From a virus (taxonomy: Duplodnaviria; Heunggongvirae; Uroviricota; Caudoviricetes): a stretch of 4,902 nt of DNA. The notes below the pieces were generated by a model. It saw only the letters and a program-made list of their open reading frames with translations, did not search any database and was not told where the DNA came from. The stretch is from the IMG/VR virus record IMGVR_UViG_2703718771_000001. One strand, 5' to 3'. This document shows positions 1 to 2,460 of the stretch, piece after piece (position 1 is the first letter of the stretch; each line of letters starts with the position of its first letter). Both the position numbers and the translations under genes were made by a program.

Positions 1-223
1 CTCGCTGGCCTGCCGCAGTTCTTCAACTTCCCGGCGCAGCTTTTCGTTCTCAATTTCAGCATCCCTTTCGGCATACCATTTTATGACGGCGGCAGAGTCA
101 TAAAGCACCTCATTACCCTTGCCACCGCCTCGCAGAACGGGCATTCCCTGTTCCTGCCAGTTCTGAATGGTACGGATACTCGCACCGAAAATGTCAGCCA
201 GCTGCTTTTTGTTGACTTCCATT
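1..223 (-). CDS. nu1: Terminase small subunit Nu1, N-terminal part (CDS runs off the 5' edge of the window)
   Basis: Minus-strand ATG at 223..221 opens a frame with no stop to position 1. My translation reads MEVNKKQLADIFGASIRTIQNWQEQGMPVLRGGGKGNEVLYDSAAVIKWYAERDAEIENEKLRREVEELRQASE, which matches lambda gpNu1 from memory (winged-HTH DNA-binding N-terminus). It lies about 189 nt from the cohesive end, as in lambda. Not in the ORF track because it has no in-window stop. Confidence 0.9.
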
Positions 224-246
224 GTTCATTCCACGGACAAAAACAG

Positions 247-411
247 AGAAAGGAAACGACAGAGGCCAAAAAGCCCGTTTTCAGCACCTGTCGTTTCCTT
301 TCTTTTCAGGGGGTGTTTTAAATAAAAACATTAGGTTACGGCGAAGAAGAACGGAAACGCCTTAAACCGGAAAATTTTCATAAATAGCGAAAACCCGCAA
401 GGTCGCCGCCC
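247..411 (-). other. Lambda-type cos site: cosN 12-nt cohesive end (400..411) plus cosB with three terminase-binding R elements
   Basis: Plus 400..411 'aggtcgccgccc' is the reverse complement of GGGCGGCGACCT, the lambda cohesive end. Flanks match recalled lambda left and right end sequence with a few substitutions. The heptamer GGAAACG occurs at 252..258 and 352..358 and its complement CGTTTCC at 292..298, the R1 / R2 (inverted) / R3 arrangement of lambda cosB. An A/T-rich stretch at about 316..337 lies where the lambda IHF site I1 sits. Confidence 0.85.
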
Positions 412-669: not shown

Positions 670-894
670 TCAACACACTGGCTGTAATGCAGCGGATGCC
701 ATGCGGCATTTAGCGGCATTCATCGTACACTCCACGGTTAGTTCTTCATTCGTGGCATTCACCTGAAAGGTCCGGGAGTGTAATTGCGTACATTTACCAC
801 TGAACGAACCTTCAACAAGAACACGACCACGCTGCAAAATACGGAACGGAATTGTTCCCTGAAAAGGTTCTACGGTTATCCGTAATTTCTTCAT
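670..894 (-). CDS. Hypothetical 74-aa protein between Rz/Rz1 and cos; function unknown
   Basis: ATG at 894..892 preceded by GGAGG (plus 'cctcc' 899..903) at 4-nt spacing. The start overlaps the stop of the Rz reading frame as ATGA (plus 891..894 'tcat'). No signal peptide or transmembrane segment is obvious; four Cys residues. I do not recognise the family. Confidence 0.5.
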   Translation of the reverse strand: MKKLRITVEPFQGTIPFRILQRGRVLVEGSFSGKCTQLHSRTFQVNATNEELTVECTMNAAKCRMASAALQPVC

Positions 895-1385
895 GTATCC
901 TCCGGATAATAAAAAGCCTGCTTAGTACACTGAGTGCGGATATAGTCCTGTGCCCCTTCCACCTGCTTCTGCATTGTCATCAGCCGTTCTCTGAGGATGA
1001 AATAATCCCGTTCAGCGGTGTCTGCCAGTCGGGGGCCGGTTGCATTATCCACGCCGGAGGTGCCGGTGGCTTCACGCACGGTACCGGGGCAGGTGGCGTT
1101 GATCCGCAGGCGCTTACGACCAGCGGCAACATCAGCGCGCAGAGTTTAATTTTCAGCTCTCGCATCGGCTAATTCCCTCGAGTATCTGGCATCAAGTGCA
1201 GCAACATCACGCTGGCGCTGCTGCATATCAGTAATGGTGGCGTTCGCCTTCTCCAGTTCACTGGCCTTGTTATCGCGCTGCTCTTTGTAGGCGATTGCGT
1301 TATCACGGTAATGATTAACAGCCCATGACAGGCAGACGATGATGCAGATAACCAGAGCGGAGATAATCGCGGTTAACCGACTCAT
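891..1385 (-). pseudogene. Rz: Rz i-spanin (inner-membrane spanin subunit) interrupted by an in-frame TAA at 1146..1148
   Basis: ATG at 1385..1383 gives [29 protein letters not shown]... (N-terminal TM helix then coiled coil), resembling lambda Rz from memory. After 79 codons the frame hits TAA (plus 'tta' 1146..1148). The same frame then continues without further stops as [73 protein letters not shown]... to the stop at 891..893, and this part resembles the lambda Rz C-terminal domain. The two ORF-track entries 1146..1514 and 891..1079 are in one frame (1514-1079=435). Confidence 0.7.
980..1165 (-). CDS. Rz1: Rz1 o-spanin (outer-membrane lipoprotein spanin subunit)
   Basis: 61 aa, [20 protein letters not shown]...: lipoprotein signal peptide with lipobox ending in Cys20, then a Pro-rich mature region ([28 protein letters not shown]) as in lambda Rz1. 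Encoded in the +1 frame relative to Rz, as expected for spanins. Confidence 0.8.
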
Positions 1386-1473: not shown

Positions 1474-1971
1474 TCATTGTTGCCCCCACAAACAGACTTC
1501 ACGCTCAATCTCACGACGAGTCATCAGACCTTTCCATTGCTTACCGCCAGCGTATGTCCAGCGACGTAGCTGATCACATGCGCCTTTGATATCGCCCTGG
1601 TTGATTTTGCGCAGAAGCGTCGATGTTCTGAAATTGCCAGCACCCACGTTGTAAACGAATGAGTAAAGAGCGCCGCGCGTTGTTTCCGGTATATCGACTT
1701 TGATGTACGGGTTAATTTGTCTGGCTACCGTGGCAAGGTCTTTATTCAGGAGGGCTTTGCATTCTGCTTCGGTATACGTTTTACCGGGAATGATGTCTTT
1801 TCCTGTATGCCCGTGACATACAGTCCATACGCCAACGATATCTTTGTATGGTATGTAGCTGACACCTTCCAGACCATCGTTACCACCTGGACCAGTGATT
1901 AACACTGATGCTATAGCAATAGCCCCGCCACCAATAGCAGCTGCAACAGCTTTTCGTAATGACGGAGGCAT
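1474..1971 (-). CDS. R: SAR endolysin (phage-21 R21-like lysozyme with N-terminal signal-anchor-release domain)
   Basis: 165 aa. The N-terminus [30 protein letters not shown] is a Gly/Ala-rich weakly hydrophobic SAR segment, followed by a T4-lysozyme-like domain. Strong resemblance to R21 from memory. ATG at 1971..1969 overlaps the holin stop (TAATG). Confidence 0.9.
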
Positions 1972-2186
1972 TATTCACCTCTCGCAGCCTTTCTTCTGTC
2001 TTCTCTGATTTTGAAGTACAGATTTGTCAGATAAGTCAAAAAGCCCAGAACTAGACTTCCCAGCACACCAATTGCAGCCCACTGTGACGGACTGACCTGA
2101 TCCAACCACTGTAAAAACCAGTATCCCGCACTACCAGCGGATGTTCCGTAGGCAATGCCAGTAGAGATTTTGTCCATTGATTTCAT
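1971..2186 (-). CDS. S: Class II holin / pinholin (phage-21 S21-like) with dual-start motif
   Basis: 71 aa, [71 protein letters not shown]: two TM segments and a charged C-terminus. Two in-frame ATGs (2186 and 2177) give the M-K-S-M dual start of the antiholin/holin pair (S21-71 / S21-68). GGAGG sits 8 nt upstream of the first ATG. Confidence 0.9.
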
Positions 2187-2385: not shown

Positions 2386-2460
2386 TGGCGGGACAGCGTG
2401 GACTCGAACCACGATAAGAAGGTTAACAGCCTTCCGTAATGACCTTTATACGACTGACCC
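2386..2460 (-). tRNA. tRNA-like gene, predicted anticodon GTT (Asn), 75 nt including encoded CCA; possibly degenerate
   Basis: Minus-strand sequence GGGTCAGTCGTATAAAGGTCATTACGGAAGGCTGTTAACCTTCTTATCGTGGTTCGAGTCCACGCTGTCCCGCCA. T arm CGTGG/TTCGAGT/CCACG, anticodon stem GAAGG/CCTTC with loop CTGTTAA. One T-T mismatch in the acceptor stem (4:68), one in the D stem, and a 4-nt variable loop. Immediately preceded on the minus strand by a T-rich run. Confidence 0.5.

Follow-up and report, generated by a model that had tools for sequence, protein, structure and literature searches.

The 4,902-nucleotide stretch of DNA analysed here (the window) carries a phage lysis cassette in which the gene for the i-spanin Rz is interrupted by an in-frame TAA codon. 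The question is whether this stop codon is an error in the sequence, part of an unusual form of Rz, or a genuine mutation that has inactivated the gene, and what it would mean for lysis.

Gene content of the window

All of the genes in the window were found on the minus strand. The window is the late-gene junction of a lambdoid prophage, and the following features were identified:

Highest-coordinate genes, minus strand: a 135-aa ORF (PHROG 1511, unknown function), NinF, NinG and a NinI-like phosphatase.
3040 to 2552, minus strand: antiterminator Q.
2305–2380 and 2386–2460, minus strand: tRNA-Thr(TGT) and tRNA-Asn(GTT), respectively, between Q and the holin.
1971–2186, minus strand: class II holin (phage 21 S-type), 71 aa, intact; PF04971 'Bacteriophage P21 holin S', E = 8.6e-36.
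1474–1971, minus strand: endolysin, an RrrD/R21-like phage lysozyme, 165 aa, intact; Pfam Phage_lysozyme, E = 5.8e-46.
1477 to 1382, minus strand: 31-codon hydrophobic ORF in the 88-bp spacer between lysozyme and Rz (ORF reading).
1385 to 891, minus strand: Rz i-spanin gene, whole, on both sides of the stop (translation, Pfam and PHROG).
1165 to 980, minus strand: Rz1 o-spanin, 61 aa, embedded in the +1 frame of Rz (Pfam PF06085).
670–894, minus strand: 74-aa ORF of unknown function; its ATG overlaps the TGA of Rz.
1–411, minus strand: lambda-type cos region, then the start of nu1 (222 to 1), by comparison with the lambda left end.

Rz is the last gene of the holin–endolysin cassette, with the o-spanin gene embedded in its +1 frame. 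The holin and the endolysin, which the preliminary description had taken to be intact, were both full-length ORFs with Pfam matches. The endolysin had a Gly/Ala-rich segment at its N-terminus, and near-identical homologues carry the annotation 'lysozyme RrrD'. The phage 21/DLP12 cassette (essD–rrrD–rzpD–rzoD) shares the PF04971 holin, the RrrD-like lysozyme and the gene order with the window. However, the Rz of DLP12 is intact and its gene overlaps the lysozyme gene, whereas the window has the spacer with the 31-codon ORF at that place, and the 3′ half of the window Rz is of the Stx-phage type, unlike that of DLP12.

Positions 400–411, read on the minus strand, give the 12-nt cohesive-end sequence GGGCGGCGACCT, and the region after it had an overall identity of about 96% with the left end of lambda. 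With a lambda-type cos and nu1 start, the prophage therefore pairs lambda-type packaging with a phage-21-type lysis cassette. The tRNA-Thr(TGT)/tRNA-Asn(GTT) pair is also annotated in E. coli WAT, and Stx phages have tRNA genes at this position, between Q and the holin. The 74-aa ORF at 670–894 sits where lambda has bor, which is on the opposite strand. It had no match in a Pfam search and matched PHROG 2571 (unknown function) only over positions 100–172 of 291, and could thus be either a fragment or a short relative. In E. coli O111 strain 8E it is annotated as a hypothetical protein.

Reading frame and domains of the interrupted Rz gene

Within the Rz gene, four features were located:

1146–1385, minus strand: N-terminal ORF of 79 codons, with the transmembrane domain (TMD) and most of coiled coil 1 (CC1), from translation, Pfam and PHROG 13.
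1146–1148, minus strand: premature ochre codon TAA at Rz codon 80; the mutated base is plus-strand position 1148, where the coding strand has T and relatives have G.
891–1145, minus strand: untranslated Rz remnant past the stop, 84 open codons plus TGA, with the end of CC1, the linker, coiled coil 2 (CC2), the C-terminus and both conserved Cys.
1200–1220 (approximate): mosaic junction inside Rz, from a five-way alignment.

The conceptual translation of the Rz frame from 1385 to 891 starts with MSRLT and finishes with YYPEDT*. The first 79 codons end in ADARAEN and are followed by the TAA, 84 sense codons and the terminal TGA at 891–893. The 79-aa N-terminal fragment matched positions 1–51 of 126 of PF03245 (Phage_lysis, E = 5e-12) and positions 1–79 of 154 of PHROG 13 'Rz-like spanin' (E = 1.5e-39). 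The 84 codons of the downstream frame matched positions 54–125 of PF03245 (E = 5.4e-31), so this frame is the remainder of Rz and not a chance open frame. Translation and the two Pfam halves thus agree with the initial reading of an in-frame TAA at 1146–1148 with about 84 Rz-like codons beyond it. That reading had also placed the stop within the first codons of an uninterrupted Rz1, and indeed the TAA overlaps Rz1 codons 6 and 7, while the 61-aa Rz1 frame is unbroken and matches PF06085.

The Rz sequence was 77–91% identical to the Rz proteins of lambda, DLP12, O111 and Stx2_95. Its N-terminal anchor is present: in lambda Rz the TMD is defined as residues 1–24 (PMC5295617), and in the alignment residues 1–24 of the window Rz showed one difference from it. 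Cys99 and Cys153 of the aligned sequence were invariant across the homologues, and both lie past the stop. A functional Rz needs an unbroken periplasmic domain through CC2 and the C-terminal residues that contact Rz1, and in the window this domain is broken by the TAA at codon 80. The gene is Rz by descent and a pseudogene by state.

Origin of the stop codon

The closest full-length alleles, those of E. coli O111:H8 8E and the Stx2a phage Stx2_95, read GAA AAT GAA ACT where the window reads GAA AAT TAA ACT, and, the mutated base apart, about 60 nt to either side are identical in the window and in these alleles. Because the nearest intact alleles read GAA, the lesion is one G-to-T transversion, which produced E80* in Rz and M6I in Rz1. 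In 891–1145 there were just three more base differences from the Rz of Stx2_95. Over the aligned part of Rz, Stx2_95 (LC567838.1) and O111:H8 8E were 96% and 93% identical to the window at the nucleotide level, respectively, and both share with it the C-terminal extension TKQAFYYPEDT. At the position of the stop, in contrast, they have GAA (Glu), and Rz1 has Met6 (Rz1 was compared for O111 8E only).

The preliminary description had given the same stretch of lambda as AENDALRDD in Rz and LKMMLC in Rz1, which the alignment showed to be correct, and had deduced that base substitutions rather than an indel made the stop and also altered residues of Rz1. A substitution was found, but it was one G-to-T change and not several, as the nearest alleles read GAA, and this single base altered a single Rz1 residue. 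The three differences from lambda (ATGATG versus ATTAAA) are for the most part ordinary allelic divergence. The multi-substitution origin that the lambda comparison had suggested was rejected, since the nearest alleles differ at one base.

The Rz gene is a mosaic. The 5′ third, 5′ of the junction, was nearly identical to an E. coli WAT-type cassette, and the part 3′ of the junction was of the Stx2_95 type, identical save for the stop and three SNPs. The codon at the stop position is GAT in the WAT type and GAA in the Stx2_95 type. Since neither has T there, and the junction lies about 55 nt upstream, an origin of the stop in the recombination between the two types that made the mosaic was rejected.

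Rarity and inheritance of the TAA allele

For the search, a 40-nt query centred on the mutated base was used, so that every 28-nt megablast seed spans this base, with the G-version as a control. It replaced an earlier 101-bp query, which could not tell a TAA plus another mismatch from a GAA. The T-version had no match in 5,426 complete E. coli genomes and none in 50,697 phage records, while the G-version was found at 6,257 places in 2,069 of the complete E. coli genomes. Exact scans with the 24-mer GAGCTGAAAATTAAACTCTGCGCG, which marks assemblies with the TAA allele, found nothing in the GTDB species representatives, the IMG/VR viral contigs and the JGI metagenome contigs; the GTDB representative of E. 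coli does not have the TAA allele. The null scans with the 24-mer speak to rarity only.

The exact 79-aa Rz product was found on 34 contigs, under the NCBI name 'lysis system i-spanin subunit Rz [Escherichia coli]', and the exact Rz1 protein with Ile6 on 92 contigs, all of them named E. coli. Whether the TAA is conserved in other isolates had been asked at the outset, and it was present in all 14 of the loci that were fetched, which were taken from one metagenome assembly of ENA and otherwise from different NCBI assemblies. Thirteen of the 14 were 100% identical to the window across the whole Rz region, and three were 100% identical to it over all 4,902 bases. Carriers were 99.9–100% identical to each other over 2.7–4.9 kb, and one 6-kb contig with the TAA recurs in 19 samples. 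The TAA allele is real, rare and limited to a set of draft E. coli assemblies, with GCA_021082445.3 and GCA_012706625.1 among the carriers.

The preliminary description had also suggested a sequencing error. According to this explanation, sequencing or assembly introduced the stop into an unbroken Rz gene with GAA at this codon, which would fit the one-base difference from intact alleles and the absence of the TAA allele from all of the complete genomes and phage records searched. However, the same TAA occurs in 14 loci from different assemblies and with different flanking structures, on a contig seen in 19 samples and in products present on 34 and 92 contigs. An error was therefore excluded, its probability being practically nil.

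The sequences flanking the allele varied among carriers, with an IS insertion, the presence or absence of ninH, an antirepressor-like gene and, in the metagenome scaffold, a different terminase region. Altogether, at least four different prophage contexts and two mosaic forms of Rz were found to contain the TAA allele. The second mosaic is that of the metagenome scaffold (ENA ERZ28571838, positions 683–1177), which has the TAA together with three linked window-specific SNPs, an Rz N-terminal segment of a different type (Stx2_95-like) and the different terminase region downstream. The occurrence of the TAA and its linked SNPs in another Rz background indicates identity by descent followed by recombination, and not recurrent mutation or error. 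The nonsense-bearing segment has thus moved between lambdoid prophages by recombination.

The called genes in the surrounding 16 kb were undisturbed and full-length, with O, a DnaB-like helicase, the nin genes, Q, S, R, Nu1, A, W, the portal, the protease, D and E among their products. In most carriers, the Rz stop is the sole evident lesion in the 16 kb examined, which fits a recent event. The initial interpretation had placed an inactivated spanin in the one prophage at hand. The inactivated Rz stood, but the lesion is not that of one isolate, since it occurs in many draft E. coli assemblies and in a second Rz background.

In loci L003/L009 (GCA_003015285.1; about 5213–6426 of L009), an IS3-family element with HTH_Tnp_1 and rve ORFs replaces the nin–Q region and adjoins early-region genes in inverted orientation. 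This insertion is further decay of the same prophage.

Predicted consequence for lysis

In lambda Rz, CC1 comprises residues 27–87 and CC2 residues 121–150 (PMC5295617). Lysis was defective with nonsense mutations at 34 positions spread over the periplasmic domain of lambda Rz, and likewise with site-directed stops at 151 and 152; R153 alone was dispensable, and the authors concluded that the chain length of Rz is strictly required (PMC5295617). Codon 80 of the window Rz aligns with lambda D80 and falls inside CC1, the range in which the laboratory nonsense alleles abolish lysis. Spanins are needed in the canonical pathway and in the pinholin/SAR-endolysin pathway, that of phage 21 included (PMC6139136), and spanin knockouts leave fragile spherical cells with the outer membrane as boundary (PMC6139136; PMC5295617).

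We conclude, with a probability of roughly 0.9, that the window carries a genuine, vertically inherited Rz nonsense mutation (E80*) leaving a cassette that is predicted to be spanin-null. What was demonstrated here is that the mutation exists, that it is a single-base change, that it is inherited and that it is rare. The truncated Rz that results from the change of GAA to TAA would retain the N-terminal membrane anchor and most of CC1, and would lose the end of CC1, the linker, CC2, both conserved Cys and the C-terminal region that contacts Rz1. Such a protein should neither reach nor bind the outer-membrane lipoprotein Rz1, and no spanin complex would therefore form. Upon induction, the holin and the endolysin would work and the outer membrane would stay undisrupted; the induced cells would end as fragile spheres that lyse only with shear or without stabilising divalent cations. 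We infer the loss of function from a map of essential regions borrowed from lambda Rz, which is 77% identical, and a spanin-null phenotype is expected because the 79-aa fragment lacks CC2, the conserved cysteines and the Rz1-contact region. The proposal of a recently inactivated i-spanin beside an intact holin, endolysin and Rz1 is thus supported by the TAA, its single-base origin and its inheritance, with the phenotype as a prediction.

The preliminary description had offered an unusual split architecture as the alternative. According to this, the 79-aa product is the short i-spanin of a functional 'overlapped' pair, or the two halves of Rz work as separate polypeptides. The overlap of the 79-codon ORF with Rz1 is confined to the first 20 nt of the latter, which resembles overlapped spanin pairs (PMC6139136), and the allele has persisted and recombined. 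However, this geometry is only superficially like that of the P2 lysB/lysC type, since the i-spanin here is half of a lambda-type Rz without CC2 and the Rz1-contact region, and Kongari et al. reported no spanin family that mixes the embedded with overlapped or separated architectures (PMC6139136). In lambda, the strict chain length and the lysis defect of all tested stops up to codon 152 (PMC5295617) also argue against it. Nor could the downstream half enter the periplasm, for it lacks both an export signal and a membrane anchor, and the earliest in-frame start available to it is a GTG at 1079. In complete genomes, all 6,257 homologous places lack a stop at this site, and with the regions essential in lambda lost, a new functional architecture is very unlikely.

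It is just as doubtful that readthrough or suppression of the stop still yields full-length Rz. This idea could appeal to the downstream frame, which is wholly open and nearly unchanged, and to the tRNA genes that the prophage itself carries just upstream of the lysis cassette. However, the only tRNAs in the window are an ordinary tRNA-Thr(TGT) and an ordinary tRNA-Asn(GTT) and no ochre suppressors, and a prophage-borne suppressor tRNA was rejected as an explanation. The readthrough of UAA in wild-type E. coli is generally very low. The open downstream frame is accounted for by the recency of the event and by its overlap with Rz1.

The TAA allele has persisted long enough to turn up in no fewer than four prophage contexts and in both Rz mosaics, so selection against it in lysogens is not strong, and it could be neutral or even beneficial. 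The number of Rz-like places per E. coli genome has a median of two, and another resident prophage might supply Rz in trans. A benefit could take the form of an adaptive loss of Rz, by which lysis is blunted after spontaneous induction or the truncated Rz poisons other lambdoid spanins through CC1. The spread over several contexts and both mosaics, and the undisturbed, full-length state of the other called genes in the surrounding 16 kb, are compatible with such a loss. Against it, the allele is rare (none of the 5,426 complete genomes), the near-identity of the carriers fits a young clonal group better than long maintenance, and in one carrier the nin–Q region is gone to an IS element, which is typical prophage decay. 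The support for adaptive loss comes down to an allele that was shuffled once, and we regard it as unlikely. There is a still slimmer chance that the truncated Rz is kept for a function, with its CC1 fragment poisoning the Rz of co-resident or superinfecting lambdoid phages, or with lysogens gaining from an unbroken outer membrane. If true, this would explain the spread of the allele by recombination into a second Rz background.

The inactivating nonsense mutation that we favour is already known in kind. The amber and other nonsense alleles of lambda Rz (Cahill et al. 2017, PMC5295617; Berry et al. 2012, cited there) likewise combine a stop in the periplasmic domain with an intact holin, endolysin and Rz1. 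The window, in contrast, has a natural allele in a wild prophage lineage, an Rz that is 77% identical to that of lambda, a holin and lysozyme of the phage 21 type, and a phenotype that is predicted. The Rac prophage of E. coli K-12 similarly has a damaged Rz with an intact embedded Rz1, and the MG1655 annotation lists rzpR as a pseudogene and rzoR as a CDS. However, rzpR as annotated is a remnant of 300 nt, and the cryptic prophage around it has suffered heavy deletion, whereas the window Rz is a whole gene with one point mutation within 16 kb that look intact.

With the TAA allele, the laboratory Rz nonsense mutants have an equivalent in nature, which is also a handy marker of one E. coli prophage lineage. 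When induced, strains that carry it are predicted to lyse incompletely and in a Mg2+-sensitive manner, and to release phage poorly. In annotation, the Rz gene here should be marked as a pseudogene and Rz1 as an orphan; the truncated protein is already in NCBI as an i-spanin subunit Rz. Outside annotation the lesion has little importance, as it is an ordinary prophage pseudogene and opens no new biological question.

Rz1 and the M6I change

Rz1 matched PF06085 with E = 1.7e-21 and PHROG 3198 with E = 9e-31. In the alignment with the Rz1 proteins of lambda, DLP12, Rac and O111, the lipobox Cys20 was invariant and its VSAC context was kept, and the proline-rich mature region was conserved; processing as a lipoprotein is predicted. 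Residue 6 is Ile in the window and Met in all four comparators, where the Asn-Asp/Glu codons in the Rz frame dictate the conservation of Met6. In lambda Rz1, missense changes in the signal sequence that made lysis defective occurred only at positions 1, 12, 19 and 20 (PMC5295617). M6I lies in the n-region of the signal peptide, outside these positions, and is for this reason probably neutral. Rz1 is formally intact, yet without a partner it would be functionally orphaned.

A 31-codon ORF between the lysozyme and Rz genes

In lambda and DLP12 the lysozyme and Rz genes overlap, whereas in the window they are separated by the 88-bp spacer, which was present in 60 of the 5,426 complete E. coli genomes. 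The ATG of the 31-codon ORF overlaps the TGA of the lysozyme gene and its own TGA overlaps the ATG of Rz, both as ATGA. No CDS was annotated within the spacer in the six records examined. The ORF varied among six loci at three sites, all of them third codon positions, with two synonymous changes and one F-to-L replacement. The ORF may be an unrecognised small membrane peptide of such lysis cassettes, a candidate that probably merits more attention than the stop in Rz. The exact 31-aa peptide was found on 561 contigs. Its 90% cluster had 27 members, and 14 of the 15 retrieved were 31 aa long; they came from E. coli, Salmonella, Klebsiella, Shigella and one Salmonella phage, and all of the names listed were uninformative.
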